A stretch of 64,000 nucleotides of DNA, from NCBI GenBank assembly GCA_017450695.1, contig JAFSTA010000254.1:272-64271 (forward strand), written 5' to 3'. The first letter of the stretch is position 1; each line of letters opens with the position of its first letter. The notes below the pieces were generated by a model that made no database searches, had not been told where the DNA came from, and worked only from the letters and a program-made list of their open reading frames with translations. A program made the position numbers and the translations under genes. Below are positions 18 through 63,273 of this stretch, in pieces. The stretch is from Kiritimatiellia bacterium. Its GTDB lineage: Bacteria > Verrucomicrobiota > Kiritimatiellia > RFP12 > UBA1067.

Positions 18-63
18 GCGCTTGCCCGTCCTCCGTAGCCGTGCGTAGAATGGATCGCGATCA
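18..63 (+). repeat. Dispersed repeat module B (GCGCTTGCC-GTCCTCCGTAGCCGTGCGTAGRATGGATCGCGA), copy 1
   Basis: Near-identical ~45-bp copy at 39353-39397 with one or two mismatches. Confidence 0.8.
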
Positions 64-76
64 TTTGGACTGTGCA

Positions 77-168
77 GAAATTGCTTTCGCTACGGGGAGT
101 CTTGGAGTTTCGGAAACAGGGGCGGCTGTTCTCCAAGCCTCCCATACTCCCAGCACCGAAAGGAACAT
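77..168 (+). repeat. Dispersed ~95-bp repeat family A, copy 1 (GAAATTGCTTTCGCTACGGGGAGTC...CAGCACCGAAAGGAAC)
   Basis: About 85% identical copies at 54176-54265 (+) and 39548-39648 (inverted). All are intergenic. Confidence 0.85.
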
Positions 169-521
169 GGATTCCAGATTCGTTGTTTGGGACGCGCCTC
201 CTCGCGTCCGCTGTGACGCGAACGGACTGACAACCCGTTCTACGGGCATGTTTTCAGACAGGATTTACAGGATTCACGGGATTGGCGGCAGATCCGAATC
301 TTGTAAATCCTGTTAATCCTGTCAAAGTCATGGGGGCGGCCTCACCCGTCGCGCGCCGTCGCGACCGTCGGATTATCCGGCTTAACCGGCTTCACACGTT
401 ATCCTGCCAACTTACCGCCAGCGTGTTGTCTATCCGTTGTTCCAGTTGATGTCCTCTCCAAAAGAGTTCCTTTCGCCACGGCGAGGCAAGGCCGTGCGGA
501 CGCGATGAATCGCGTCCCTCC

Positions 522-1199: not shown

Positions 1200-4100
1200 A
1201 TGAAATCCTCGCTGACACTCCTCGCGGGTCTTCCCGCCTTCTCTCCGTTTCGTCTCGACGCGCTTGCCGAGCAGATTCATCGCCGGATTCCCGGCATCTC
1301 CGATCCCGAAATCGACGCCCGTTTCGTCTATCTGCTCTCCGTCCGTCCGGAGGCGACGCTGACGGACGATTCCGCCGAATTGCAGAAGGCGCGTTCCCTG
1401 TTGGGCGCGACCGCGGAACCGGTCGGGGACGGCGGGTTCTTCGTCACGCCGCGGAAGGGAACGATCTCCCCGTGGTCCTCCAAAGCGACCGATATCTTCC
1501 GCAACTGCGGACTGGACGACATTCTCCGGGTGGAGCGCGGTGTCCAGTTCCGCATCCGCGGTGCGCTCGAAAGCGGGACAGTCCCCCGCGAGCTGTCGGT
1601 GCAGGAACTGCAGCCGGTCTTCTGTGTCCTGCACGACCGCATGACCGAGGGTGTTTATACGGATCTCTCCGATTTCTTCGACCAGCAGCCGCCCCGTCCG
1701 GGGCGCGTGTTCGACGTGCTGGGGCGCGGTCTGGAGGCGTTGCAGGAGGCGAATGTCTCGATGGGACTCGCCCTGAACGAGGAGGAGATCGACTACCTCT
1801 TCCGCAGCTACACAGCGGCGGGACGCAACCCGACGGACACGGAACTGGTGATGTTCGGGCAGGTGAACTCCGAACACTGCCGCCACAAGATTTTCAACGC
1901 GGAGTGGATTATCGACGGGCAGAAGATGGACCGGACGCTCTTCGGCATGATCAAGAACACGCATCGGCTCCACCCGCAGGGAACGCTGGTCGCCTACAAG
2001 GACAACTCCGGTGTGCTGGAAGGGTTCGAGGCGGATCGTTTCTTCGTCGATGGCGAGACCCACACCTACCGCTTCGAGCCGGATCGCATCGACATGCTGA
2101 TGAAGGTGGAGACGCACAACCATCCGACGGCCATCTCGCCCTATCCCGGCGCGGCCACCGGCGTCGGCGGGGAGATTCGCGACGAGGCAGCCACGGGAAC
2201 CGGCTCGAAGACGAAGGCGGGTATCTGCGGATTCATGGTCTCCAACTTGCAAGTGCCGGATTTCCCGATGCCGTGGGAGAAGGAGTTCGCGGAGTTCCCG
2301 CGCCGCCTCTCGCCCTCGCTCTCCGTGATGATGGAGGGTCCCATCGGCGGCGCGTCCTTTGGCAATGAGTTCGGGCGTCCGCAACTCTGCGGCTTTTTCC
2401 GAACCTATCAGGAACTGGTGAACGGACGCGAGCGCGGCTACCACAAGCCGATTATGCTGGCCGGCGGCATGGGGAACATCCGGCGGCAGCTCGTCCACAA
2501 GCAGGACGTGCCGCCCAAGGCGCTGATCGTGCAGATCGGCGGCCCCGCCATGCGGATCGGTCTCGGCGGCGGGTCGGCGTCCTCTCTCGTCATCGGCACG
2601 AACGACGAGGAACTGGATTTCAACTCCGTGCAGCGCGGCAACGCCGAGGTGCAGCGCCGTTGCCAGGAGGTAATCGACGCGTGCGTCGCGCGCGGCGAGA
2701 AGAACCCGATCCTCTCCATCCACGACCTCGGCGCGGGCGGCCTTTCCAACGGCTGCCCCGAACTGATCGAGGCGACGGGGGCGACCTTCGAGTTGCGGAA
2801 CGTGCATAACGAAGAGCCTTCGATGAACCCGATGGAAATCTGGTGTTGCGAGGCGCAGGAGCGGTATGTGCTGGCGATCAAGCCGGAAGACCGCGCCGAC
2901 TTCGAGAAGCTCTGCGAGCGCGAGCGCTGCCCCGTCGCTTTCATCGGCGAGGCTCGCGACGACGGCCGTCTCGTTCTGACCGACAGCCATTTTCAGGACA
3001 AGCCGATCGACATGGATATCGGCATTCTCCTCGGCAAGCCGCCCCGTATGGTGCGCGACGTGCAGACCGACAACACCAAACCCGCGCCGCTCGCCTTCCC
3101 CGCGCGGGTGGATATGCAGAACGAGGTGCGCAACGTCCTGCACCTGCCCTCCGTCGCCAACAAGACCTTCCTCGTGACTATCACGGACCGCACGATCACG
3201 GGACTCGTCCACCGCGACCAGATGGTCGGCAAGTACCAGTTGCCCGTGGCGGACAACGCCGTCACGATGACGGATCTCGTGCATTACACGGGCGAGGCGA
3301 TGTCCACGGGCGAACGCCCCGTCATCGCGTTGATCGACGGTCCCGCGTCCGGCCGCATGGCTGTGACGGAGGCGTTGATGAATATCGCCTCCGCCGACAT
3401 CGGCGACATCGGCAACATCAAGCTCTCCGCCAACTGGATGGCGGCGGCGGGCGAGGCGGGCGAGGACGCGCGCCTCTTCCGCACGGTGGAAGCGATCGGC
3501 ATGGAGTTCTGCCCCGCGCTGGGCATCTCGATTCCCGTTGGGAAAGACTCGCTCTCGATGCGTACCGTCTGGAAAGATTCCCAAGGTGCCGACCACAAGC
3601 AGGTCGCCCCGCTGAGTCTCGTGATCAGCGCGTTCGCCCCCGTGCGCGACGTGCGCAAGACGGTCACGCCCGATTTGAAGCCCGGCGGCAGCGTCCTTCT
3701 CCTGGTCTCGCTCGTGCCGCATGAGCCGTCCGTAAAACCCGACGTTCCCGCGTTGGGCGCCTCTGCCTGGGCGCAGACGCAAAACCAGGTCGGTGATCGG
3801 GCGGCGGACATGAAGGATCCGTCGCGCCTCAAAGAGTTCTTCGAGGCGATGCAGGAGCTGGTTGACAAGCGTCTGGTGCTCGCCTACCACGACGTTTCCG
3901 ACGGTGGCGTGATCGCCACGCTGGCGGAGATGGCGATTGCGGGCGGGCGCGGTTTCACCGCCTTCCTCCCCGGGCAGGCGGGCGAACCGGAACAGGAGCT
4001 GGCGGCGTTCTTCAGCGAGGAACCTGCCGCCGTGCTGCAGGTCGCGGACGAGCATCTGGAAACCGTCCAGGCGATTTTCGCGAAACACCATTTCGCATCC

Positions 4101-5162
4101 GACCAAGACATCCGCAAGATCGGCGAGCCGACCGACACGCGCACGGTCGCCGTCTATATGAAAGACAACCAGAACCTGCAGCGCCGTCTGCTGGATACGG
4201 ACATCACCTGGTTGCGTTGCGTCTGGTCGGAGCTGACTTACCGGATGCAGGCGTTGCGGGACAACCCGAAGTGCGCGGCGGAAGAATACGGGAACGCGGC
4301 GAACGAGGAAGATCCCGGCATGAACCTCCACCTCACCTACGATCCGGACGCCCTGCCGAGCATCCAGGCGGCAACCTCCGCGAAACCGCGAATCGCGATC
4401 CTGCGCGAGCAGGGCGTAAACGGACAGGTCGAAATGGCGGGCGCTTTCACGCTGGCGGGGTTCGACGCCGTCGATGTCCACATGACCGACCTGCAGACGG
4501 GACGGGTCAAGCTGGATGACTTCCGGGGACTGGTCGCGTGCGGCGGCTTCTCCTACGGCGACGTGCTGGGAGCGGGTTCCGGCTGGGCGCGCAGCATCCT
4601 TTACAACGACAAGCTGCTGGACGAGTTCCGCCGTTACTTCGAACGCCCCGACACCTTCACGCTCGGTGTCTGCAACGGCTGCCAGATGGTTTCGCAGCTG
4701 AAGGACATCATTCCCGGCGCGTCGAACTGGCCGGCCTTCACGCGCAACGTCTCCGAACAGTTCGAGGGGCGTTACGTGACGGTCGAGGTACTCGATTCTC
4801 CGTCGATCCTCCTGCGCGGCATGGCGGGGTCACGCATTCCGATCGCCGTCGCGCATGGCGAGGGATATGCGAATTTCACGCACACGGGAGATGCCGCCAA
4901 GGCGGTCAAGGCATTGCGTTATGTGGACGGAAAGGGAGAGGCGACGGAGCGGTATCCGTGGAACCCGAACGGATCGGCGGGGGGCTTCACGGGCTTCACC
5001 TCCGAGGACGGACGCGCCACCATCATGATGCCGCACCCAGAACGCTGCTTCCGCAGCGTCCAGCTCTCCTACCGTCCCGAAGGTATCTTCGAGAACGAGG
5101 CGGGGCCTTGGATGCGTATGTTCCGAAACGCCTACGCATTCGCGACAGGGACGACCATTTAA
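1200..5162 (+). CDS. purL: Phosphoribosylformylglycinamidine synthase, single-chain large form
   Basis: 1320 aa. N-terminal [22 protein letters not shown] matches E. coli PurL. Contains FGAM synthase domains and a C-terminal glutaminase domain (GVCNGCQM). Confidence 0.95.
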
Positions 5163-5197
5163 CCAGGCAACAAGAAGACAACGAGAAAGGGGTTCAC

Positions 5198-6115
5198 ATG
5201 GGACTGATTATCAACGGCGAAATCATTTCCGACGACGTCTTGGAAACATCATACAATTCGGATCGCATTCGCAATGCCTACACCGAACACTGCAAAAGCG
5301 AGGGCATTGAGGAAACCGACGAAGGCAGAAGACAGTTCAACGAGGATCGGATCATTGAGGATACGGTCATCCTGCAGGGCGCGAAAGCCGCCGTCCCGCC
5401 GCCCAAGGAACACGCGATCAAGTCCCGGCTCTCCCAGCTGAAATCCGATCTTTATCTGCCGACCGATACGGTTACGCCGTTCGAGGAAGAACTGCTGCAG
5501 ATCGCGGTCAAGAAATACTATCTCGTGAAGTTCTTCAAGCTGATTGACAGCTGTATTCCCCACCCGACGGAAGAGGAGTGCAACAAGTATTACGAGGAGC
5601 ATCTGGATGATTTCGCGGCAGGCGAGGTTTATCGGTTCACGCACATTTGTTTTTCGCTGGACAATTATGAGTCGCAGACGGAAGCGACGGTGGATCTCCT
5701 GAACCTGAAGGCGAGAATCGAATCCTCGCAGAATCCGGATGATAGCTGGTGGTATGCCATCGGCAAGTATTCCATCACGGTGGATCAGGATAACGGGGAA
5801 TACCCGCCGGTCAAGAAGGGGAAACTTGATCCGCAAATCGAGGCGCCCCTGTTCAAGTGTACGGTTCCCGGTCAAATCAGCGAACCGATCGTCACGAGCG
5901 AAAATACGATCGATCTTTTCCGGTTCGAAGCGGTACGAGATCTGGGGGTCCTTCCGTTCTCGACTGTCTATCCTCTCATCCGCAAACGCGTGTTTCAAGA
6001 AAAGCAAGCCATCGCGACCGGCAAGAAACTCGAAGAGCTGAAAACGAAAGCGGTCATCGAGCACACCCCTCCCGTCCAAGCCACCGGCGAAACCGGGGAC
6101 GCCGCCAGCGAGTAA
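5198..6115 (+). CDS. PpiC/parvulin-type peptidyl-prolyl isomerase-like protein with a SurA-N-like region
   Basis: C-terminal PQIEAPLFKCTVPGQISEPIVTSENTIDLFRFEAV resembles the parvulin motif. Gene GC is about 52%, clearly below the neighbours. Confidence 0.5.
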   Translation: MGLIINGEIISDDVLETSYNSDRIRNAYTEHCKSEGIEETDEGRRQFNEDRIIEDTVILQGAKAAVPPPKEHAIKSRLSQLKSDLYLPTDTVTPFEEELLQIAVKKYYLVKFFKLIDSCIPHPTEEECNKYYEEHLDDFAAGEVYRFTHICFSLDNYESQTEATVDLLNLKARIESSQNPDDSWWYAIGKYSITVDQDNGEYPPVKKGKLDPQIEAPLFKCTVPGQISEPIVTSENTIDLFRFEAVRDLGVLPFSTVYPLIRKRVFQEKQAIATGKKLEELKTKAVIEHTPPVQATGETGDAASE

Positions 6116-6117
6116 AG

Positions 6118-6280
6118 CCGGTTAAGCGTAGTGGTTGGTTAGTGGCTGGTAGGTTTTAGTTGGTAGCTGGTAGGCGGTAGGCTAGAGTTTTTAGAACTTC
6201 TAGCCATTCTAGGCGATGCTCGGTGAGCTTACCACCCAACTACCTAACCACCCAACCACCTAACCTTAAGACGAGGTTAG
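6118..6280. repeat. Long imperfect inverted repeat with a GT-rich arm (GTGGTTGGTTAGTGGCTGGTAGG...) and a CA-rich arm (CTTACCACCCAACTACCTAACCACC...), between convergent genes
   Basis: Strong strand-asymmetric composition. Arms are complementary over about 40-50 nt. The central loop holds a small palindrome, CTAGAA-N-TTCTAG. Confidence 0.7.
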
Positions 6281-6284
6281 AGGT

Positions 6285-7467
6285 TCAATCTTTCCAATCT
6301 GTCCCCCTGCTGAGTACATCACACTTGACGAGCATCCGGGGGATATGGAACGGTCCCTTGAAGAGGTTCCCTTTTGCGTGCTGCGCCACGGTACCGTCGC
6401 GATGGAGATATCCGAACCACTCTGGGAAGTCTGGATCCCTCAAATGACCCCACGCCCAGTCCGCAACGAGTTTGAAACGGTCGAAATACCGTTGCTCGCC
6501 CGTCAAACGGTATGCCTCCAGATTGGCGATGACCGCCTCGCACTGCGGCCACCAGAACTTCATATCCTGCTCATAGCACTGTGACGGGAAGTTGCGGCAG
6601 TCGCGGAACGAGATGATACCGCCGCCACACGTTCCGTCCCATCCCCACTCCCATGACCAGTCTAGAATCTGTAACGCCCGCTCGAGAAGCGCCTTGTCTC
6701 CGCGCAGCCGGGCCGACATCCATCAGAAACCAACTCGTCTCGATGGCGTGGCCTGGATTGATCATACGCCCGGCGCACGTGTCAATGAACTCGCCGTTCG
6801 GACCAACCGTCTCCAGCACGCACCTGAACTCAGGATGGACGAAATATTTCAAGATCCGATCGACCGAATCGGAAATCTGCGCATCGAGAACCGGATCGTC
6901 CAAAACCTGCTTCAACACCATCGCCACGTTGATGAGAATCATCGTAAGCGAATGTCCCTGCGCGGCGACAGCCGGTTCGTACTTGGGCGGAGTCACCACG
7001 GGATCGTTCCGGAACGACAGGATGCGTCTAAACAGCGACAGCGCCCGTTCCGCGCACGACCCGTCGCCGGACGCCCGTGCGTATTCGGCGAGCGCAATCA
7101 CCGCAAAGCATTCAGAAAACAAGTAGCGGCGCATCCGAAGCGGCGTACCATCCGCCGCAACCTCGAAGTACATCTTCCCCCTGGCGTCAAAGCAGCGACG
7201 TTCGAAGAACCCGATCGTCGATTTCGCCGCCGCCAGCCATTCGGGATTCTTTTCCACATGGTTGTACGCATAGGACAGAATATATGCGAACCGCCCCTGA
7301 AACCAGACGCTTTTCGTGGAATCCATCCGCGTACCGTCGCGGTCGAGACAGGTGAACACGCCGCCGTTCACCCGATCCCATCCGTGTTCCATCCAGAACG
7401 GCAGGATGTTGCCGACCAGCTCTGTCCGGCATTTCGCACCAAACTCCGCAATCGAATCTTTTTCCAT
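6285..7467 (-). pseudogene. AGE-family (N-acylglucosamine / cellobiose 2-epimerase) gene, frameshifted
   Basis: Two overlapping ORFs (6571-7467 and 6285-6719) carry the N- and C-terminal halves of one AGE epimerase. The frame switches within GATGTCGGCCCGGCTGCG near 6715. Confidence 0.7.
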
Positions 7468-12232: not shown

Positions 12233-12398
12233 CTGTTGGACACTTTGAAATGAAGCATGGCGGTTTGGAATTTTCAGACTTTCATCATTTGGGTGAATCC
12301 GTTTTCTGTCGTAATGTGTGAGCGAGGGATCGAAAAGCCATGTTTTCGGCACTTTCTCTGCGTGCTCTGCGACTCTGCGTGAGAACCCAAACGAGGAA
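12233..12398 (+). repeat. Dispersed ~170-bp modular repeat family D, copy 1 (CTGTTGGACAMTTTGAAA...TTTGGGTGAATCCGTTTTCTGTCGTAA...TTCTCTGCGT...GCGACTCTGCG...AACCCAAACGAGG)
   Basis: Inverted copy at 51244-51470 with an extra ~80-bp CACGGA-rich insert. Partial copy at 30972-31017. Confidence 0.85.
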
Positions 12399-21161: not shown

Positions 21162-21850
21162 GCCTCCACCTCTTTCTTCTGGGCGCGTTTCGGAGCGAGT
21201 TTCGCCATGCGGGCGAGGATCGCCTCATAGCCGGCACGGGTCACAACCCACGTCCGATACAGCATCAGGGTGTACAGATCGACATCGACCGCCTGCGCCA
21301 CTTCAACCTTCTGCAGGTTGCTCGCGGAGAGCAGCAGGTTCCTGTCTTTCTCGTCCAGACGGTCGGAGAGGATCAGCACCCCCTTCGGCTCCGTCCCGAT
21401 CTTCTTCAGCAAGGCGATCAACGCCTTGGTCTTCGGCTCCGCCAGATCGAACTGCTCAATGATCTTGACCCGGCCCTCGTTGATCATGTCGCTCACGACA
21501 CGGTTGAACGCCAGCTGCTTGACCTTGATGTTGATCTTCTGCGAGTAGTCGCGGGGCTTCGGGCCGAACGCGACGCCGCCGCCGCGCCAGACGGGGCTCT
21601 GGCGGAATCCCGCGCGGGCGCGTCCCGTCCCCTTCTGCTTCCACGGCTTCTTGTTGCTTCCCGCCACCTCGCCTTTGCTCAGGGTGGAGGCGCATCCGGC
21701 GCGCTTGCCGGCCTGGATCGCGACAATCGTGTCCTTGACCGCCTGCTCGCCCCTGTCGAGCGTCAACTTCGATTCATCGACGCTGACTTCGCCCGCGGCC
21801 TCGCCGGCCGCAGAGAAAACTGGAATCGTACTCATTAGGCTTTCCTCCAA
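21158..21850 (-). CDS. rplD: 50S ribosomal protein L4
   Basis: Conserved L4 with a short C-terminal extension. Confidence 0.9.
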   Translation of the reverse strand: MEESLMSTIPVFSAAGEAAGEVSVDESKLTLDRGEQAVKDTIVAIQAGKRAGCASTLSKGEVAGSNKKPWKQKGTGRARAGFRQSPVWRGGGVAFGPKPRDYSQKINIKVKQLAFNRVVSDMINEGRVKIIEQFDLAEPKTKALIALLKKIGTEPKGVLILSDRLDEKDRNLLLSASNLQKVEVAQAVDVDLYTLMLYRTWVVTRAGYEAILARMAKLAPKRAQKKEVEA

Positions 21851-22464
21851 CCCTTGGTGACATACACGATGCCGAACTTCGGTCCGGGGACAGACCCCTT
21901 CACGAGAATCACGTTGTCATCCGGGCGCACCTGCACGACGGCCAGGTTCAGCGCCTTGCGGTTCACCGCGCCGGCGTGTCCGGGCATGTGCTTGCCCTTC
22001 TCGATCCAGCCGGGCAGGTCGCGCGCGCCGACGGAACCGGGGCGCCGCTTCGTGTGGGACCCGTGTCCGGCGGGACCGCCTCTCATGCCCCACTTCTTCA
22101 TCACGCCCTGGAAGCCCTTGCCCTTGGTGACGCCACGCACGCTCACGTACTTCACATCCTTGAAGATATCGACCGTGACGGTGTCGCCCACGCTCAGCTG
22201 CTCCCCCTCGTCCATTTCAAACTCTTTCAGCTCGCGGCACAGCGGCACGCCAGCCTTCTTGAAATGCTCGGCCACCGGCTTCGTCATCCGGTGTTCCTTC
22301 TGCTCGATGAACCCGATCTGCGCGGCGACGTACCCGTCCCGCTCCATCGTCTTCACCTGCACGACCGGGCACGGCCCCGCCTCGATGACCGTCACGGGGA
22401 TACGGACCCCGTTGTCGTCGTAGATCTGGGTCATGCCGATTTTTCTGCCAATCAGTCCTTTCAT
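21835..22464 (-). CDS. rplC: 50S ribosomal protein L3
   Basis: Conserved L3. Confidence 0.9.
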   Translation of the reverse strand: MKGLIGRKIGMTQIYDDNGVRIPVTVIEAGPCPVVQVKTMERDGYVAAQIGFIEQKEHRMTKPVAEHFKKAGVPLCRELKEFEMDEGEQLSVGDTVTVDIFKDVKYVSVRGVTKGKGFQGVMKKWGMRGGPAGHGSHTKRRPGSVGARDLPGWIEKGKHMPGHAGAVNRKALNLAVVQVRPDDNVILVKGSVPGPKFGIVYVTKGWRKA

Positions 22465-22478
22465 GGTGTCACGTCTCC

Positions 22479-22787
22479 TTATACCCGAATGGTGATGTCC
22501 ACGCCGGCAGGCAGATTCAGTTTCTTGAGCTCGTCAACCGTCTTGGCCGTCGGCCCCACGATGTCTAGCAACCGTTTGTGCGTACGCATCTCAAACTGGT
22601 CCATGGACTTCTTGTCCGTGTTGACACTGCGGTTGACCGTGAAGCGCTCGATCTTCGTCGGTAACGGGATCGGGCCCACGACCTGCGCGCCTGTGCCACG
22701 CGCCGTGTCGATGATGTTCGCCACGGCCTGGTCCAGGATTCGATGGTCATAACCTTGCAAACGAATGCGGATTTTCTGGCTTTGCAT
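22479..22787 (-). CDS. rpsJ: 30S ribosomal protein S10
   Basis: [19 protein letters not shown]. Confidence 0.95.
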
Positions 22788-22793
22788 TCTCTC

Positions 22794-24950
22794 TTACCTG
22801 TTCAGTAGTTTCTCTCTTACTGTCCGGGGTACCTCCGCAAACTCGCCAGGCTCCATAGTGTAGCTGGCGCGCCCGCGCGAAAGCGAGCGGATTGCGGTAG
22901 CGTACCCGAAAAGTTCCGCCAGGGGGACCTGCGCCTTGACGATCTGCATGTCACCACGCATACTCATCTCCTGCACGTTCCCCCGGCGCCCGTTGATGTC
23001 CCCCATGATGTCGCCCACACATTCGGGCGGCGTCACGATGTCAAGGGACATAATCGGCTCCAGCAATTCCGGCTTCGCGGCCTGCGCCGCCTCCCGGAAC
23101 CCCATCACGGCCGCGGTCACGAAGGCCACGTCTGTCGCCGACTCTTCATCCGTCACCGAAACGGCAACCACCTTCGCCAGCACGTCCGTCATCGGGTATC
23201 GCGCCAGCACGCCGGTCAGGATGCCGTTGGTCAATCCCTGCTCGATGCTGCCGGCCAATTTCTCGTCCGGCAGATCGCGCCGCGCGGCGGAGCTGATCTC
23301 CACCGCGTGGCCGCTCCCGCGTTTCCGCGGAGAAACCTCCACGGTCACGCCCGCACAGAGCCGTTTCCCGCCCACCGTCTGGTCGAAGAGGAACTCGCTC
23401 CTCCCCGTCTCCGTCACGGTCTCGTAGTACGACACCATCGGCCTGCCCGTGTTCGCTTCACAGTGAAACTCGCGGCGCAGGCGATCCACCAGAATGTCCA
23501 GGTGTAACTCGCCCATGCCGCTTAAAATCAATTGTCCCGTGTCCGGATCGACGCGCTTCTGGCAGGTCGGGTCCTCCGATGCCAGCAGGTCGATCGACTC
23601 TTCCAGCTTCTTCTTGTCCGCGCTGCTCTTCGGCTCGATCGCCATGAACATCACCGGCTCGGGAACGGTGATGCGCTCCAGGTAGCAAGCCTGGAACTCC
23701 GCGCACAGCGTGTCGCCCGTCGTGGCCCCCTTGAGCCCCACGATCGCGCCGATGTCCCCCGTCCGCAGACTCTCGACCTCCGTCTGCTCGTCCGCGAACA
23801 GCTTCACCAGCTTCATCACGCGCTCGCGCTTGCCCGTGCGGGGATTGAACACGTTCTGCCCCTTCTTCAGCGTCCCTCCATAGACGCGGACGAAGAAGAG
23901 CCGCCCCACATACGGGTCAACCGCAATCTTGAAGACCAGCGAGGTCAGCGGGGCGTCCGCGCCCAGCGCGCGCGTCACCTTCGCCCCGCTCTTCAGGTCG
24001 GTCGCCTCCAGCGCCGGACGATCCTCCGGCGAGGGCAGGTACCACACCACCGCGTCCAGCAGCTGCTGCACGCCCTTGTCCCGCAGCGACGACCCGCACA
24101 GCACCGGGACGATCTTCCCGGCGAGGGTCGATTTGCGGAGGGAACGGCGAAGCTCGTCCGCCGTCAAATCGGGATTTTCGAGGTATTTCTCCGCGATGTC
24201 GTCATCGGCGTCCGCCGCCTTCTCGCAAAGCTCCTCACGCGCCAGCCGCGCGGTTTCCAGCATGTCCCCGGATATCTCGGAGACGGTAAATTCTTTCCCC
24301 TCCGTCGCGTCGTCGAAAATGATCGCCTTCATTTCGAGAAGGTCGATCACGCCGCGGAACGTCTCGGCCGCGCCGATCGGTAGTTCGACCTTCACGGGGT
24401 TCGCGTGCAGCTTCGTCGCGATCTCCCCCACGCAGCGGTCGAAATCGGCGCCCATGCGGTCCATCTTGTTCACGAAGGCAATTCGCGGCACCTGGTAACG
24501 GTCTGCTTGACGCCATACGGTCTCCGACTGCGGCTGTACGCCGCCGACCGCGCAGAACACGCCCACCGCGCCGTCCAGGACGCGCAGCGAACGCTCTACC
24601 TCGATCGTGAAATCCACATGGCCCGGCGTGTCGATGAGGTTGATACACTTACCGAGCCAGAAACAGGTGATCGCCGCGCTGGTGATGGTTATCCCGCGCT
24701 CGCGCTCCTGAATCATCCAGTCCGTGACAGTGTTGCCCTCGTCCACGTTTCCGAGACGGTGCGTGCGCCCTGCGTAAAAGAGGATGCGTTCGGTCGTCGT
24801 GGTCTTGCCCGCATCGATATGCGCGACCACCCCGATGTTCCGAACATCGCAAAGAGACGTCAAACCGCCCGCCGGCTGGTTGCCGACGGAGGCCTGTTTC
24901 TCCGTTCCTTTGCTATCCAAGACGCTCACTTGATCACTTCCTGTTTTCAA
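22794..24950 (-). CDS. fusA: Elongation factor G
   Basis: 718 aa. GTP-binding AHIDAGKTT, and EF-G domains II-V. Immediately upstream of rpsJ with no tuf gene between. About 25-aa N-terminal extension. Confidence 0.95.
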
Positions 24951-25048
24951 AGATCATGTGGATAATTCACCTTTTCACTCGAAAAAGATTTGGTTAGTTT
25001 AGCATAAATCCAAGACCAAGACAAGCCCAATTTTTCACTTTTTTCGAC
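24951..25048 (-). promoter_or_regulatory. AT-rich leader and putative promoter region of the fusA-S10-spc operon
   Basis: Sharp drop in GC immediately upstream of fusA. No upstream rpsL/rpsG. Exact -35/-10 elements not assignable by eye. Confidence 0.3.
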
Positions 25049-26327
25049 AGCGCTCGGGGAGCGCTTGGCAAAACCCGACCTCCGCCCCAGGGTCCCGCCC
25101 TCGGCACCCGCCAGGCGCATCCCCGCGCCGCCCTCGGAACTCCCAGGCGCATCCCTGCCGCCCCGGGGTTCCGGCAGGCGCAGCCTCTGCGCCGTTTTCT
25201 CTTCCCAGCCCCCGGAAATTCTGCTATCACCCGCGCCATGCCATACGAACGGGACAAAAACGGGCATCTCAAGGCTGGCATCCGGTTACCCGGCTGGGAT
25301 TATTGCCAGCCGTGGTTCTACATGATCACCCTCACCGTCAAGAACCGCCGACCGATTCTCGGAAAGATCGCCGACGGCGAAATGGTCCTTTCCCCGCATC
25401 GGCGCAAAAGTCGCCGCCGCCTGGAAAAACCTTGGCGCCGTCTTTCCCGAGGTGGAACCCTGCCAATGGGCCCGTCATGCCCGAACATTTCCACGGCATC
25501 ATCTGGGTGAGGAAACGCCTGGCCTCGCCCCTCGGCGAAGTGATCCGCAGCTTCAAGATCGCCGGCTCCAAGGCCAACGCCTCGCTGGAGGCCCCCTGCC
25601 TTTTCGACGGCTCCCCGACTTTCTGGTTTCCCGGCCTGTACGACACCATCCTCTTTTCGAAGGGGCGGCTCAAGAGAATGACCGCCTACATTCTCAACAA
25701 CGCGAAACGTCGCCGGGCCGTCATGCAGAATCCCGACCTTTTCCATACGACGCGCAACATGGAAATCGTCCCCGGAAAACACGGCGACTCCGTCGGCAAC
25801 CACTTTCTCCTGGAAAAGCCCGTCAAAATGTTCGTGCAGGTCTCGCGGCGCGCGGACGAAACCGAAATCGCCGCCGTGGTCGAGCAGGCTCTTTTGCACG
25901 CCTCGCGCGGCGGCGTGGTGGTCTCCGGCTGTATTTCGCCGGGAGAACAGGCGGTGGCGAGAGCGGTTCGCGAAGCGGGACTGCCGCTCATCGCGATCAT
26001 CCCCAGGGGGGCGCCCCCTATTTCAGGCCGAGCGGAGATTACTTTGATGCCTGCGAAAGAGGGAATCTTCTCCTGGTCTCCCCCTCCCCGAAAATCTCCA
26101 AAACCGAACGCCTCACCCGCGAGCGGTGTTTCGCCATCAATGCCATCGCCGCCGAAATCTGCGGCGAAGACCCCGCCCTGATCCACTACCGCGGCTCTCG
26201 CCCCTAGGGTCCCGCCAGACACCCCCGTGCAGCACTCGGAGAGCGCTTGGCAAAACCCGACTTCCGCCCCAGAGTCCCGCCCTCGGCACCCGCCGGGCGC
26301 AACCCCGCGCCGCCCTAGGGTCCCGCA
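25049..26327 (+). mobile_element. REP-bracketed RAYT unit. About 95-bp GC-hairpin direct repeats (25049-25145 and 26231-26327) flank a Y1/HUH transposase gene
   Basis: Flanking repeats are about 90% identical. Each carries GGCGC-N6-GCGCC and GGCGCAG-N4-CTGCGCC hairpins. Confidence 0.7.
25238..26207 (+). pseudogene. REP-associated tyrosine transposase (RAYT, IS200-like Y1 HUH) fused to a DprA/Smf-like Rossmann domain, with reading frame interrupted at least 3 times
   Basis: RAYT motifs WFYMITLTVKNRRP, HUH (VMPEHFHGIIW) and catalytic Tyr (AYILNNAKRR), cf. E. coli YafM. The DprA-like region (GGVVVSGCISPGEQAVARAVREAG...LPLIAIIPRGAPP-YFRPSGDYFDACERGNLLLVSP...RERCFAINAIAAEI) follows in the same frame. 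Frame shifts 2 to 0 to 1 to 0, partly at G6/C5 homopolymers. Confidence 0.6.
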
Positions 26328-26385: not shown

Positions 26386-27093
26386 ATGAAACGAAATGAT
26401 GAGTTGCGACCGGTCCGGATTACGCGCCGGTTCACCAAACATGCGGCGGGGTCGGTCTTGATCCAGTGGGGCGACACATGGGTGTTGTGTACGGCTTGCG
26501 TCGAGGACAAGGTGCCGTCATTCCTGCGCAATACGGGAAACGGATGGGTGACTGCCGAGTACAATATGTTGCCGAGCAGCACGGTGGAACGCAAGGAGCG
26601 CGACATCAAAAAGCTGAAGCAGGACAACCGCAGCGTGGAGATCGGGCGGTTGATCGGTCGCGCCCTGCGTGCCGCGATTGCGATGGACAAGATCGGCGAA
26701 CGGACGATTACGGTGGATTGCGACGTGTTGCAGGCGGACGGCGGCACGCGCTGCGCCTCGATCACGGGCGGTATGGTGGCGTTGACGGATGCGGTGAACC
26801 GGCTGCTGGCGAACGGGGAGATCACGGAGAATCCGTTGCTGTGTTCCGTCGCGGCGGTCAGCGCGGGAATCTGCGCCGGGGCGCCGATGCTGGATCTGGA
26901 CTACGCGCACGACTCCACCGCCGACGTCGATATGAATTTCGTGATGACGGATGGCGGGCGATTCGTCGAGATTCAGGGAACCGCCGAACACAATCCGTTC
27001 ACCGATGAGGAACTGGATCAGCTGAAGACTTTGGCGAAAAAAGGAATCGCGCAATTGACGGCGATTCAGCGGGAGGCATTGAGCCATGATTAA
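26386..27093 (+). CDS. rph: Ribonuclease PH
   Basis: Conserved RNase PH sequence. About 236 aa. Confidence 0.9.
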
Positions 27094-30971: not shown

Positions 30972-31017
30972 CCGTTGGACAATTTGAAAACCACGGAGCA
31001 CACGGAACACACGGAAT
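30972..31017 (+). repeat. Partial copy of repeat family D (TTGGACAATTTGAAAACCACGGAGCACACGGAACACACGGAAT)
   Basis: Matches the 5' module and CACGGA-rich insert of the 51244-51470 copy. Confidence 0.75.
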
Positions 31018-31236
31018 AAGCTGATGGGAAAACGTTTCTGTCCGCAGGTCACGCCCATTCGGTTTCGAGAAAACTCTGTATTCCTCGCTTTCTCTGCGTG
31101 AGGAAAGCAACACACCGTGAAGCGACAAGTGTTCGCTTCCCCGAATGTCCCGCGCAGAACTGGTACACAGCGCATTCTGCAGCTCTGCACGAGAATCCAA
31201 TCTAGGCCAATATCAGCCTGTGGTGTTCTGCGCCGT

Positions 31237-39216: not shown

Positions 39217-39352
39217 TCAAAAGATTCAAAAAAGTTATTCGCTCAGTTCACAGGAATGGGGAAACAGGGACAGAAGCCACAAGTCACGTGTTGCAAGACC
39301 GCCGTTTCATTTTCTCACGCAGAGCCGCGAAGCCGCAGAGAACGGGATGGGG

Positions 39353-39397
39353 GCGCTTGCCAGTCCTCCGTAGCCGTGCGTAGGATGGATCGCGACC
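39353..39397 (+). repeat. Repeat module B, copy 2
   Basis: Matches 18-63. Confidence 0.8.
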
Positions 39398-39547
39398 TCT
39401 GTAGTAGAACGCGCGGCTTGCGCATTTCGTTCGGAGCAGCGCACAAACGGGCTAGCAGCCCGCTCTACCAAGCGACGCGCCACGACCGCGTGTCACGTCC
39501 CCGAATGTCCTGCTCAGAACTACCGTGTTACAAATGACGACAATGCC

Positions 39548-39648
39548 GCAAACCAACGTTCCTTTCGGTACCGGGAGTTTGGGAGACTTGGAGAAGAGAG
39601 TCCCCTATCTCTGAAACTCCGAGACTCCCCGTAGCGAAAGCAATTTCC
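39548..39648 (-). repeat. Repeat family A, copy 3 (inverted orientation)
   Basis: Its reverse complement aligns with 77-168 and 54176-54265. Confidence 0.85.
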
Positions 39649-40065
39649 GCCTTGCCTAAGCGATCGCCGAGGACGGCGCCCCTCCGTAGGATTGCCTTAC
39701 GCAGAGAACGGGAGGGTCGCGCCCCGTCGCGACGATAATACGGAACACGACTTGCTTACGCGGACGCGACGGGGCGCGTCTCCCACCGCAGGATTGCCTC
39801 GGACAGAGAACGTGTGGTGACAACCGACGACCGTTTGCGCAGAGGGGGTTTGCAAGGACGACAACTGGGACAACGGATGGACAACTTGCGGGCGGTCGTC
39901 GCGCAACCGCATGACGATTCCCATCCGGCTCGCGGTTGCGAGCCGTACCGATTCAAGTTGTTCTCGATGTTGTCCCTGTTGTTTCCCAATCCCCTGCGTA
40001 TGGAAAAGCCCTTGTTCCTTTGTGTTCTTTGTGCTTAAGCCAAATCCCAACAAAGGAATTGATCC

Positions 40066-49040: not shown

Positions 49041-49170
49041 CCGGGTAAGCGTGTTCTGCATTGCGCACGCGACGAAGCGCGTCCCAATTCGGGCAACAAG
49101 GACGTCGCCCTCCCGTTCTCTGCGTGAGGGAAAAGACACGCGACACGCGCCCGTCGCTTGTCGCGTGTCC
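49041..49170. repeat. Repeat family C, copy 2 (CCGGGTAAGCGTG module + GGGCAACAAGGACGTCGCCC hairpin + CCCTCCCGTTCTCTGCGTGAGG + GACACGCGACACGCG...TGTCGCGTGTC hairpin)
   Basis: Aligns to 522-640 with module order rearranged. Confidence 0.75.
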
Positions 49171-49449
49171 CTTCTTCTCAGCCTTTCAGTCTCTCAGCTG
49201 GCGCGAAGCGCCTTACCCACTAACCGATAGGCAAGGCAGGGATTTGGAAACAACGGAAACAACATCCAGAACAACTTGAATCGGGACGGCCCGCAACCGC
49301 GAGCCGGATGAAAACCGTCGCGCGTTGTCGATCCGTTGTTTCAGTTGTTGCCCTTCCTCCTCTCGGATGTTCTCCGCGATCAGCGAATGATTCGGGGAAG
49401 CGGTACTCCTGCCGCTTCATTCTGTTCCGTTTCCATGCAACAGCGACCC

Positions 49450-49550
49450 GAGTGTCGCACCCACGATTTGGCGGTATGTTCCACCAACTCGACCTCTGTG
49501 CCCTCAAGGCTGCGGAGTGTCGCACCCCCGATTTGGCGGTATGTTCCACC
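49450..49550 (+). repeat. Two 36-bp direct repeats (GAGTGTCGCACCCMCGATTTGGCGGTATGTTCCACC) separated by a 29-bp unique spacer
   Basis: 35 of 36 positions identical. Period 65 bp. Only two units, and no cas genes nearby. Confidence 0.7.
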
Positions 49551-49690
49551 CTTTGCGGACTTCGCGTACTTTGCGTGAGGTAATCCTGACGCCTTCCTTT
49601 CGTTTCTCAGCCTCCCAGCTTTTCAGCTGGCGCGAAGCGCCCCGCCCTGTGAGCGCGGGCGGCGGGCTGACTACCGACTGTTGCCTTCCG

Positions 49691-51243: not shown

Positions 51244-51470
51244 CCTCGTTTGGGTTTTCCCGCAGAGTCGCAAAATACGCAGAGAAAGTGCTTTCACCCG
51301 CACACACGTTACGACAGAAAACGGATTCACCCAAATGGTGAAAGCCTGTAAAATTCCAAAGCGCCATGATTCACCACGGAATACACGAAACTCACGAAAA
51401 CGACGTTCCAAGAAACGGATGATTTTCCGTGTAATCCGTGTGTTCCGTGGTTTTTCAAATTGTCCAACAG
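51244..51470 (-). repeat. Repeat family D, copy 2 (inverted, with ~80-bp CACGGA-rich hairpin insert), preceded by a CCGGGTAAGCGTG tandem module at 51218-51243
   Basis: Its reverse complement aligns with 12233-12398. Confidence 0.85.
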
Positions 51471-51603
51471 CGGAATTTAGGTTCAACGTTTCCAATCGGA
51501 GGTTCATTCCTACTGGATTCTTGGAACATTCTCTGCGTTCTCTGCCTCTTGCGCCTCTGCGTGAGACATTCAACCGCGGTTATTAGGTTTAACCCTCCCT
51601 ACG

Positions 51604-53810: not shown

Positions 53811-54175
53811 GGCGTCCGATGTGGTTGTTCGACTATCATATTGTAGTACTTCCCCTGCGCATGTGAAATCGGGAAGTTTTGGTGGCCTCCAACCTCGTCA
53901 TGCGCCCCTTGCGCGGGAGGGGCGTAATTTATTGCGCCTGTGTTGCCGAAAGCCTGAGCTTGAGGAATGGCAACGGCTTGTCGCCTACCAGCACATCCAC
54001 CGTGACGCGGCCGGAATCGACCGCCACGGGGAGCGACACCGGACAGGGTGACTGTGCCGTTGCCGGAAGCGATAGGCGCTTCGCACCAGCTGAGAAGCGG
54101 GGAAACTGAGAAGAAGAAACATGTGCAACGAATGGGAGGGCCGCGCCCCGTCGCGGCCGTTTCGGCGGGGCGGAA

Positions 54176-54265
54176 CTTGCTTTCGCTACGGGGAGTCCCG
54201 GAGTTTCGGAGACAGGGGTACTGTTCTCCCAACCTCCCAAACCCCCAGCACCGAAAGGAACGTTG
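54176..54265 (+). repeat. Repeat family A, copy 2
   Basis: Aligns with 77-168. Confidence 0.85.
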
Positions 54266-54504
54266 ATTTGTTGCCTTGCGGGGCAACAGAACAGAATGAA
54301 GCGAAGCTGAGAAGTAGGGGGAAACTGAAAGGCGGTCGCGACGGGGCGCGACACTCCCGGATAAGCGGGGGAAGCATTCCAGATTTTCCGGGCTTTCCGG
54401 AAATTTTTCCTAGCGTGACAAGTCCCGCGCCCCCTACGGGGACGCGGGTACAAAAATGGGGCGGCGCGGATACCCCGCACCGCCTCAATGCGATTGGCCT
54501 AAAG

Positions 54505-62689: not shown

Positions 62690-63060
62690 GCAGCAGACCT
62701 CCGTTTCATTCTCAAATGACGCCAGTATATCAAACCCCGCAACCAATATTCAATCAATATTCAATCCTGAGTATTAGGGTGTGGCGCATCTCCGAATCGT
62801 ACATGTATCCCGGAATCGACTCGGTTTCGCCGTCCGAACAGATACGCATTCCAAGCGGCACGATGCGGATACGCCCAGTGTCAATCGCCACTGTGGTTTT
62901 TCCGCGCGTGTCGGTTGTCGCGTGTCGCATGGTCTCGTCCGTCGCGTATGTCCCGTCCCGCCGCGAAAGACACGCGACACGCGACAGGCGAAACGACCCA
63001 ATTCCACGGCGCGGAACCGTCATCGAGGGACGCGCTCCGTCGCGTCCGAGACAGCCCAAC

Positions 63061-63140
63061 TGGTAGGGCGCGTGATCCCTAACGCGCCGCACCACCGGAT
63101 AATCCGCCCCGCATGGTAGGGCGGCTTGTCCCCAAGCCGC
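63061..63140 (+). repeat. Tandem REP-like hairpins (GGTAGGGCGCGTGATCCCTAACGCGCC / GGTAGGGCGGCTTGTCCCCAAGCCGCC)
   Basis: Two adjacent GC-rich stem-loops sharing a GGTAGGGCG leader. Confidence 0.6.
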
Positions 63141-63273
63141 CGCTCCTCGCCGTCAGCCGTGAACTACGGAAGGGGCGCGATCCGGCGCGTCCACATACCC
63201 CTCTCACTTCAGACCGTTCTCAATCGACGCTACTATTGAAGAACTGAAGAATCGAATACGCGCACTTCGTTCG

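Follow-up and report, generated by a model that had tools for sequence, protein, structure and literature searches.

RAYTs are the best-known "domesticated" bacterial transposases, and their role for the cell is debated. The REP sequences that flank a RAYT gene classically lie in inverted orientation (the REPtron), and tens to hundreds of REP or REPIN copies are found in a genome. IS200 elements, by comparison, carry a terminator-like hairpin upstream of their gene. Extended forms of the Y1 transposases have been described in TnpAY1 subclasses 2.1 and 2.3, where the extensions comprise 37–69 residues, occur in Proteobacteria and accompany N-H-x-H motifs; DprA is not mentioned in that work (PMC6006769). 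Two single-stranded DNA (ssDNA)-binding signatures are known in DprA: G-S/T/A-R, in the loop after strand β3, and F/L/Y-x-x-R-N/D, on helix α6 (Wang et al. 2014, PMC3950713). Binding of ssDNA has been shown experimentally for Helicobacter pylori DprA (HpDprA; PMC3950713) and for ShosA (PMC11961720).

The locus described here lies in a 64-kb stretch of DNA (the window) from a rumen Kiritimatiellae MAG. A pseudogene on the + strand (25238–26207) occupies the space between fusA (22794–24950, - strand) and rph (26386–27093, + strand). Translations and homologs show that it encodes a 322-amino-acid protein in which a Y1-HUH (RAYT-like) domain is joined to a DprA-like domain. The reading frame starts at 25238 and closes with a TAG stop at 26205–26207, and three frame changes are needed to read through it, passing from frame 25238 to 25239 after ~25398, to 25240 after ~25472 and back to 25239 after ~26012. 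An intact ortholog of 322 amino acids, P0117, shows 93% identity with the repaired window protein and is encoded at the same site adjoining fusA in a related strain (L081). DNA identity between this strain and the window is 97.7% over fusA and 94.2% over the gene. Pairwise alignment with L081 locates the three breaks: an A inserted at 25398, one C too many in the C-run at 25471–25473 (CCC vs CC), and a net loss of one base at 26006–26013, comprising a G6 run and the next bases (AGGGGGGCGCCCCC in the window, AGGGGGTTCGGCCCC in the ortholog).

Assemblies from one species disagree on the length of the G-run at the third frameshift (6 vs 8 G, an inferred count), and the ORF products P0115 (234 amino acids) and P0116 (190 amino acids) diverge only from this point on. 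The 234-amino-acid ORF fragment of the window is identical to NCBI MBQ7190882.1, and the same broken ORFs, with products of 90, 190 or 234 amino acids, recur on eight or more contigs that derive from different samples. This recurrence in independent assemblies makes an assembly error unlikely. A first-pass annotation had suggested that the gene might be decaying or mis-sequenced; the decay is genuine, with a frame truly broken by three indels, whereas mis-sequencing is improbable. The repaired protein also carries Q143R, F258A and K263R, all at positions conserved in 90% or more of the family. The dN/dS of the window gene against its ortholog is 0.34, and the adjacent fusA segment shows zero non-synonymous changes. 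Programmed frameshifting was considered and rejected, since orthologs need none and slippery sequence is lacking at two of the three sites. The copy in the window is a fixed, non-functional pseudogene and is best annotated as a pseudogene of a Y1-HUH/DprA-like family, instead of as two hypothetical ORFs. The first-pass annotation had further proposed that it sits where rpsL-rpsG would precede fusA; such a displacement is unsupported, as a close relative has the identical arrangement, and neither rpsL nor rpsG was found in the 64-kb window.

Among 5.8 billion proteins searched, 95 relatives were identified, and the intact ones (57–77% identity, 100% query coverage) are single ORFs of 320–400 amino acids; distant relatives, at 27–45% identity, have an unchanged two-domain layout. 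A profile built from the C-terminal domain only was run against 1.84 billion cluster representatives and matched 1704 proteins, 1207 of them at E ≤ 1e-10. All 89 listed matches of at least 300 amino acids also carry the RAYT-like N-terminal domain. The C-terminal domain thus never appears without a Y1 domain among the 89 full-length top matches, suggesting that the fusion is obligate. The earlier view that both halves belong to one gene is borne out by these proteins, and the same fusion proves to be intact and widespread in relatives. The family comprises ~1,200 clusters at 50% identity, and genomes sampled at one per species contain at least 546 loci. For the 80 of these that were listed, hosts include Kiritimatiellia, Lentisphaerae, Verrucomicrobiota and one planctomycete, together with many Prevotellaceae, Muribaculaceae and Bacteroidaceae, including the cultured Prevotella lacticifex and Hallella absiana.

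Copy number is low. The 64-kb window holds one copy, and genomes with two loci have paralogs that are only 36–67% identical, which points to RAYT-like rather than IS-like behavior. Two-domain members were not found in plasmid or phage collections, where the plasmid search gave N-domain-only matches on two large plasmids and the phage search gave no match, and a viral fold library contained no two-domain relative. A literature search found no paper joining RAYT or HUH transposases with a DprA-like domain, in keeping with the initial impression that the architecture had not been described. The fused architecture is a conserved and widespread chromosomal family that has so far gone unannotated.

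The Y1-HUH nuclease domain spans 25283–25734 on the + strand (repaired residues ~16–165). It carries the motif MPEHFHG, with the HUH codons at 25486–25494, and the motif AYILNN, in which the catalytic tyrosine is encoded at 25687–25689 and an asparagine follows four residues on. Across an alignment of 76 homologs, H83, H85 and Y150 do not vary, and N154 varies hardly or not at all. The domain has the defining features of the Y1 HUH superfamily, an HUH motif and a single catalytic tyrosine (Y-x-x-x-N/Q), and it has the TnpA fold, a four-stranded sheet with HUH on a strand and an αD helix bearing the tyrosine. The best curated match of this domain is NCBIfam REP_Tyr_transpos (NF047646), to which the repaired protein scores 36.7 bits, the cut-off being 80. 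All 76 family members match this model (best E 1.4e-12), and the window protein and P0001, at ~37 bits, do not reach the trusted cut-off (80 bits) of this RAYT/TnpAREP family model. Pfam Y1_Tnp gives weak matches only, in 24 of the 76 members. A Pfam search with the repaired window protein alone returned nothing useful, recognizing neither Y1_Tnp nor DNA_processg_A.

The C-terminal half (25735–26204, + strand; repaired residues ~166–322) forms a DprA-like Rossmann domain of the SLOG superfamily, in which G186, G224, S233, E236, C272, G275 and R294 are invariant or nearly so across the 76 sequences. At the sequence level, the domain resembles DprA only marginally (E 0.01–0.05). Pfam DNA_processg_A (PF02481) matches three of the 76 members at E ~0.1, and the top matches of the family profile against PDB sequences are H. 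pylori DprA (E 0.011), spanning the first 53 residues of the C-terminal domain, and ISDra2 TnpA (E 0.012). A profile of the C-terminal domain alone gives E 0.05, no gain over the full-length profile (E 0.011). Structure comparison of the predicted protein ranks ShosA (8ZVA) highest, with a score of 14.4, followed by IS608 TnpA (13.5), HpDprA (12.8) and E. coli TnpAREP (12.5); other DprAs score 11.1 and 9.8, and LOG-type SLOG proteins reach about 7.5. A Foldseek search gave concordant results.

These matches of the predicted structure indicate that the DprA assignment of the first-pass annotation was correct at the level of the fold. The modeled fold of the residues after the RAYT-like domain is DprA-like, whereas the evidence stops short of placing it in the DprA family proper: Pfam DNA_processg_A does not match the window protein, and both ssDNA-binding signatures are only partly conserved. 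At the first signature, G50-T51-R52 of HpDprA aligns with [V/I/C]-S202-R203 in the family, where the serine and arginine are at least 90% conserved and the glycine is not. The second is not conserved as such; the corresponding helix, equated by the order of secondary structures and not by residue-level superposition, reads h-T-R294-x-x-C-x-x-h-N301, with an invariant arginine and no R-N/D pair.

A 90-nt direct repeat brackets the pseudogene. The upstream copy, R1 (25048–25137, + strand), is 92% identical to 26230–26319 and contains the hairpin AGCGCTC-GGG-GAGCGCT, the box GCCCCAGGGTCCCGCC (25084–25099) and the hairpin GGCGC-ATCCCC-GCGCC. Between R1 and the gene, the segment 25138–25203 (+ strand), delimited by alignment and a terminator-like match, contains extra partial repeat units and a gene-proximal hairpin, GGCGCAG-CCT-CTGCGCC (25177–25193), which lies 45 nt before the ATG and is followed by a T-rich tail. 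A 59-nt stretch within this segment is missing from the intact ortholog in L081. Downstream, repeat and motif searches identify a box copy, CTCGCCCCTAGGGTCCCGCC, that overlaps the stop codon and precedes a degraded hairpin (26197–26229, + strand); the degraded hairpin itself (26217–26229) reads GCCAGACACCCCCGTGCAGCAC in the window and GCCAGGCGCAGCCTCTGCGCC in relatives. The second repeat copy, R2 (26230–26319), and a further box copy (26308–26327) occupy 26230–26327 on the + strand, between the pseudogene and rph. A 15-nt version of the box, GCCCYAGRGTCCCGC, occurs four times (25084, 26201, 26266 and 26312), always on the + strand and always at the gene flanks. Sub-strings of the 90-nt repeat are found in only two places in the 64-kb window, with 0 expected by chance. 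R2 duplicates 90 nt of lineage-specific upstream sequence. When folded as ssDNA, the upstream repeat copy outperforms shuffled sequence and the downstream copy does no better than shuffled, so strong structure is not claimed for the whole 90-nt repeat.

An Rfam scan of the region matched no family. A metagenome-wide scan with the repeat core GAGCGCTTGGCAAAACCC gave 30 matches, all of them 18–23-nt chance matches in a collection (JGI) that does not include this organism. Other dispersed hairpin repeats with a AGGGTCSCGCCC core are also present in the window, sharing only a 12-mer with the flanking unit, and L125 carries tandem copies of this AGGGTCSCGCCC-core family downstream of its homolog.

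Cognate units flank the orthologs of the close clade, where they read on the coding strand as the box GGGTCYCGCC and, after it, a hairpin, GCGCA(G/C)-NNN-(C/G)TGCGC, often with a T-rich tail. Their number varies from locus to locus. L124 has five tandem units upstream and two degenerate ones downstream, and L126 has three upstream and two downstream. L131/L132 has two units upstream, the proximal of which ends 25 nt before the true ATG, and one downstream, starting 7 nt after the stop. L088 has four units upstream, and L001, a near-identical strain, has one; in neither was a full unit seen downstream, where each shows a hairpin-like fragment after the stop. The gene-proximal hairpin of the window is identical to the downstream hairpin of L131, and an equivalent is found in L124, L088 and L126, with compensatory stem changes (CAG/CTG vs CAC/GTG). 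Same-strand units are found on both flanks in the window, L131, L124, L126 and L088. The unit pattern matches only at gene-adjacent, + strand positions in the clade loci and the window; neither the rest of the 64-kb window nor ~130 kb of sequence surrounding the relatives contains another copy.

More broadly, repeats common to both flanks are present at 14 of 79 testable loci (10 of them direct), compared with 4 of 109 control genes from the same loci. In more distant members the repeat sequences differ but follow the same design: L013, L024 and L033 have tandem hairpin units of 77–86 nt, L080 has a long direct repeat together with arrays of simple sequence, and L045, the only locus with an inverted-pair arrangement, has hairpin pairs of this kind on both sides. 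Units are absent from the close relatives L125, L127 and L129 and from most distant relatives. In L125, L127 and L129 the ATG directly follows a -10-like TATAAT, suggesting that the arrays are insertions into the 5′ leader. Where present upstream, the units follow the -10-like box and precede the ATG, which places them in the 5′ UTR. On these sequence comparisons, the flanking units belong to the gene. The first-pass description of them as REP-like holds insofar as the repeats travel with the gene, flanking orthologs in other species; they are not REPs in the defining sense, being direct instead of inverted and having no extra copy in the DNA covered. The REP-mobilizing role suggested in the first-pass annotation is accordingly unsupported.

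Genomic neighborhoods are not conserved overall. The first-pass annotation had drawn attention to recA, which does lie ~1.9 kb downstream of the pseudogene, but this proximity, like synteny with fusA and rph, is conserved in none of 80 related loci, and a link to recA was rejected. Nine Prevotellaceae/Bacteroidaceae loci place the gene directly after polA on the same strand. Several PVC lineages show gene sets resembling restriction–modification (R-M) systems around it. In L090, the gene (X) lies inside a type I R-M operon, hsdM-hsdS-X-hsdR, with overlapping stop and start codons; in L124/L126 it stands between PLD-SNF2 and an Eco57I-like methyltransferase, and in L127 between DUF4391 and SNF2. 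PADLOC weakly matches one of the 76 members to PsyrA and finds no system match for the other 75. No ShosT-like neighbor is present in the annotated loci, and the neighbors in the window are fusA and rph. An association with R-M or defense systems as a general rule was rejected, as it concerns ~6 of 90 loci and PADLOC is essentially negative. The search for an empty site or a near-identical second copy found neither, and the gene occupies the same site in related strains.

Several explanations can account for parts of this evidence. The family may be a classical RAYT/REPIN system, in which a domesticated transposase keeps a genome-wide REP/REPIN population and the flanking repeats are its local members. 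The match to REP_Tyr_transpos, the Y-x-x-x-N(P) motif typical of class-2 TnpAREP-like proteins (PMC6006769), the low copy number with divergent paralogs, the REPIN-like hairpin pairs of L045 and the dispersed AGGGTCSCGCCC-core repeats of the window, with their tandem copies in L125, are consistent with such a system. It is nonetheless unlikely, given that the flanking unit is confined to the gene in the DNA covered, that the units are direct and that their likeness to the dispersed family is limited to a 12-mer. An autonomous IS200/IS605-like element, with the repeats as left and right ends bearing subterminal hairpins for peel-and-paste transposition and the DprA-like domain as an accessory, would explain why the end units share one orientation, like LE and RE of IS608, and why a terminator-like hairpin precedes the gene. 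Close homologs in unrelated contexts, including R-M-like operons (L090, L124/L126, L127), and GC-rich units set against AT-rich host flanks in L131 also fit. This explanation is quite improbable in view of the missing multi-copy state, as no genome has multiple near-identical copies and paralogs are 36–67% identical; the absence of plasmid- or phage-borne members, a tnpB partner or an observed empty site; and synteny that is conserved across Prevotellaceae species (after polA, nine loci) and between strains here.

A third possibility dispenses with mobility, making the protein a host DNA-metabolism or defense factor that processes ssDNA in replication and repair, or together with R-M systems, with the units as operators or terminators. 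Its position after polA, its type I R-M operon with overlapping stop and start codons, the R-M-like neighbors in three further lineages, the structural match to the Shosta defense protein ShosA, the single PsyrA match and the placement of units in the 5′ UTR are compatible with this role. Most of the ~90 loci, however, have unrelated neighbors such as glycoside hydrolases and sulfatases, 75 of 76 members lack a PADLOC system match, the linkage to polA is limited to a single clade, where it may reflect inherited synteny, and loss of the gene is evidently tolerated in this species; a host function unrelated to mobility is very unlikely.

The locus is probably a decayed cassette of ~1.3 kb, consisting of a gene for a Y1 HUH–DprA-like enzyme and its own box/hairpin cis-elements, with the enzyme acting on its own flanks. 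Judged on the DNA covered, arrays that are strictly local, lie on the same strand and vary in copy number favor such own-flank action, as cassette movement or array remodeling, over the maintenance of a dispersed REP population. The intact protein combines an N-terminal Y1 HUH ssDNA nuclease/ligase of the RAYT/IS200 kind with a C-terminal DprA-like Rossmann domain. Its gene is bracketed on the coding strand by the GGGTCYCGCC box and short GC hairpin, which here fall within the duplicated 90-nt segment. By analogy with IS608 and ISDra2 TnpA and E. coli TnpAREP, a dimer may recognize the hairpin units when they become single-stranded, on the lagging-strand template or in repair or transcription bubbles, and may cleave beside the 5′ box, forming a 5′-phosphotyrosyl link. 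The DprA-like domain would hold the adjacent ssDNA and might pass it to RecA, a purely conjectural step. Cutting and rejoining at its own flanks could lead to excision or integration of the cassette or to expansion and contraction of the unit array, instead of genome-wide REP dispersal. The window copy is inactive, owing to its three frameshifts, its substitutions at near-invariant residues and the degraded downstream hairpin. Speaking against this proposed cassette, the hairpin and T-run could simply be a duplicated transcription terminator; some close relatives lack units, the downstream repeat folds no better than shuffled sequence, and no empty site was seen.

More tentatively, and with considerable doubt, the fusion may represent a class of site-specific recombination enzymes for ssDNA that has yet to be described, widespread in Bacteroidales and PVC bacteria of gut and rumen, in which unit nicking, strand capture and RecA nucleation are coupled. 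If so, sequence-specific cleavage would be coupled to homologous recombination through a tethered DprA-like domain, and such enzymes could move or copy the cassette, remodel tandem arrays or act jointly with R-M systems on invading ssDNA. The family joins a RAYT-like ssDNA nuclease permanently to a DprA-like domain, has members in cultivable Prevotella and Hallella, and has a C-terminal half that current domain databases leave unannotated. It thus offers a natural experiment in the coupling of HUH enzymes to downstream ssDNA handling. The short, well-defined cognate DNA units make biochemical tests straightforward, and the family could supply new sequence-specific HUH tags.

Among known systems, RAYT/TnpAREP (E. 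coli YafM/RayT, PDB 4ER8) shares with the window family a low copy number per genome that is not IS-like. The window family, however, fails to reach the NCBIfam equivalog cut-off, with 37 bits where 80 are required, has an extra DprA-like domain of ~155 amino acids, and is accompanied by direct, often tandem units that are not seen dispersed in the DNA covered. The IS200/IS605 TnpA proteins (IS608 and ISDra2; PDB 2VHG and 2XM3) resemble it in having subterminal-type hairpins on both flanks on the same strand, but the tyrosine motif of the window family is Y-x-x-x-N and not the Y-x-x-x-Q of subclass 1.1 (PMC6006769). The family also lacks multi-copy behavior and tnpB, and its protein is twice as long owing to the fused domain. 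Compared with DprA/Smf (H. pylori DprA, 4LJK/4LJR/5MLL; S. pneumoniae, 3UQZ), the window family lacks SAM and winged-helix/Zα domains as well as the motif-1 glycine and the motif-2 R-N/D pair (PMC3950713), and its DprA-like domain lies behind a nuclease. ShosA/PsyrA, the DprA-like antitoxin of Shosta/PsyrTA defense (8ZVA), differs in that its domain partner is SAM instead of Y1-HUH; the window family has no ShosT-like phosphoribosyltransferase partner. TnpAY1 subclasses 2.1 and 2.3 (Quentin et al. 2018, PMC6006769) are similar in their class-2-like Y1 core, a conserved C-terminal extension and no typical REPs, whereas the window family is set apart by its DprA-like Rossmann domain of ~155 residues, its [ED]-H-F-H motif and its distribution in PVC bacteria and Bacteroidales.

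Members of the Y1-DprA-like family, in which a RAYT-like Y1-HUH nuclease domain is fused to a DprA-like Rossmann domain, occur in several distinct gene neighborhoods. In the window, rpsJ and rplC directly follow fusA, with no tuf gene between them (21835-24950), and rpsL-rpsG is absent before fusA and throughout the 64-kb window. Together these features make an unusual str/S10 arrangement, of which L081, a close relative, has at least the divergent fusA/Y1-DprA part in common with the window. The third frameshift of the window pseudogene lies at a G-run (26006-26011) whose length varies among assemblies of the same species (the window and loci L083-L087): it comprises six G in the window, where the ORF product is 234-aa, and an inferred eight G where the product is 190-aa. 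Neither length restores the frame, and the variation suggests homopolymer slippage in a gene that was already dead.

A second neighborhood is found in nine Prevotellaceae/Bacteroidaceae genomes (L016, L017, L019, L020, L025, L039, L040, L047, and L065), in which the family gene lies 3' of, and on the same strand as, the DNA polymerase I gene polA. The two genes are separated by 15-300 nt or overlap slightly, as illustrated by L017 (polA, 3105-5876; family gene, 5923-6966). On the upstream side these loci likewise have a polyprenyl synthetase gene in common, and the downstream neighbors differ. One homolog contig, L069, is binned as Paratractidigestivibacter (Actinomycetota) and is 88-91% identical to L078 from Hallella absiana (Bacteroidota) across several kb, including the family gene. 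This likeness probably reflects mis-binning rather than recent transfer.

Other homologs are associated with restriction-modification genes. In one lineage (L090-L093, protein P0061), the Y1-DprA-like gene is located between hsdS and hsdR of a type I restriction-modification operon (6001-7023 in L090), with which it looks to be co-transcribed because gene spacing is tight and its stop overlaps the hsdR start by 4 nt. Close homologs lie in the opposite orientation within restriction-modification or defense-like islands that have an integrase close by (L124, 4383-12962; L126, 5799-11049; L127, 1-12319). The L124 and L126 homologs are flanked by genes for a PLD-SNF2 helicase and an Eco57I-like methyltransferase, and the L127 homolog has DUF4391 on one side and an SNF2 helicase gene on the other, at a site adjoining an N6/N4 methyltransferase, a Schlafen/AlbA_2 ATPase, and a ResIII endonuclease.

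The box+hairpin units flanking the family gene vary in number. Upstream of the gene, two near-identical Verrucomicrobia contigs carry one 30-nt unit (L001, 2255-2305) versus four (L088, 2235-2370), so these arrays grow or shrink over short spans of time.

Several long intergenic regions of the window (18-173, 12264-12396, 31001-31113, 39303-39993, 49041-49641, 51244-51576, 54135-54278, and 62903-63143) share mosaic modules, including a 117-nt match (57-173 versus 39551-39667, 80% identity) and CTCTGCGTGAG-containing units. These modules look like a MITE/REP-like repeat landscape and bear no sequence relation to the 90-nt repeat bracketing the pseudogene. Direct repeats of ~100 nt (46262-46359/47402-47499) and 45 nt (46574-46618/47723-47767), at 72-76% identity and with copies separated by ~1.14 kb, suggest tandem paralogous genes.

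A dispersed hairpin repeat, GGGAGGGTCGCGCCCCGTCGCGAC, could be the true dispersed partner of the enzyme family, since its AGGGTCSCGCCC core is also found in the box flanking the family gene. L125 carries six copies of this hairpin family in tandem (2062-2277), ~300-500 nt downstream of its homolog, and the related L129 has a single copy at ~1721. The window contains three copies (39710-39733, +; 54134-54157, +; 54335-54358, -), two of which form an inverted pair ~175 nt apart, resembling a REPIN.
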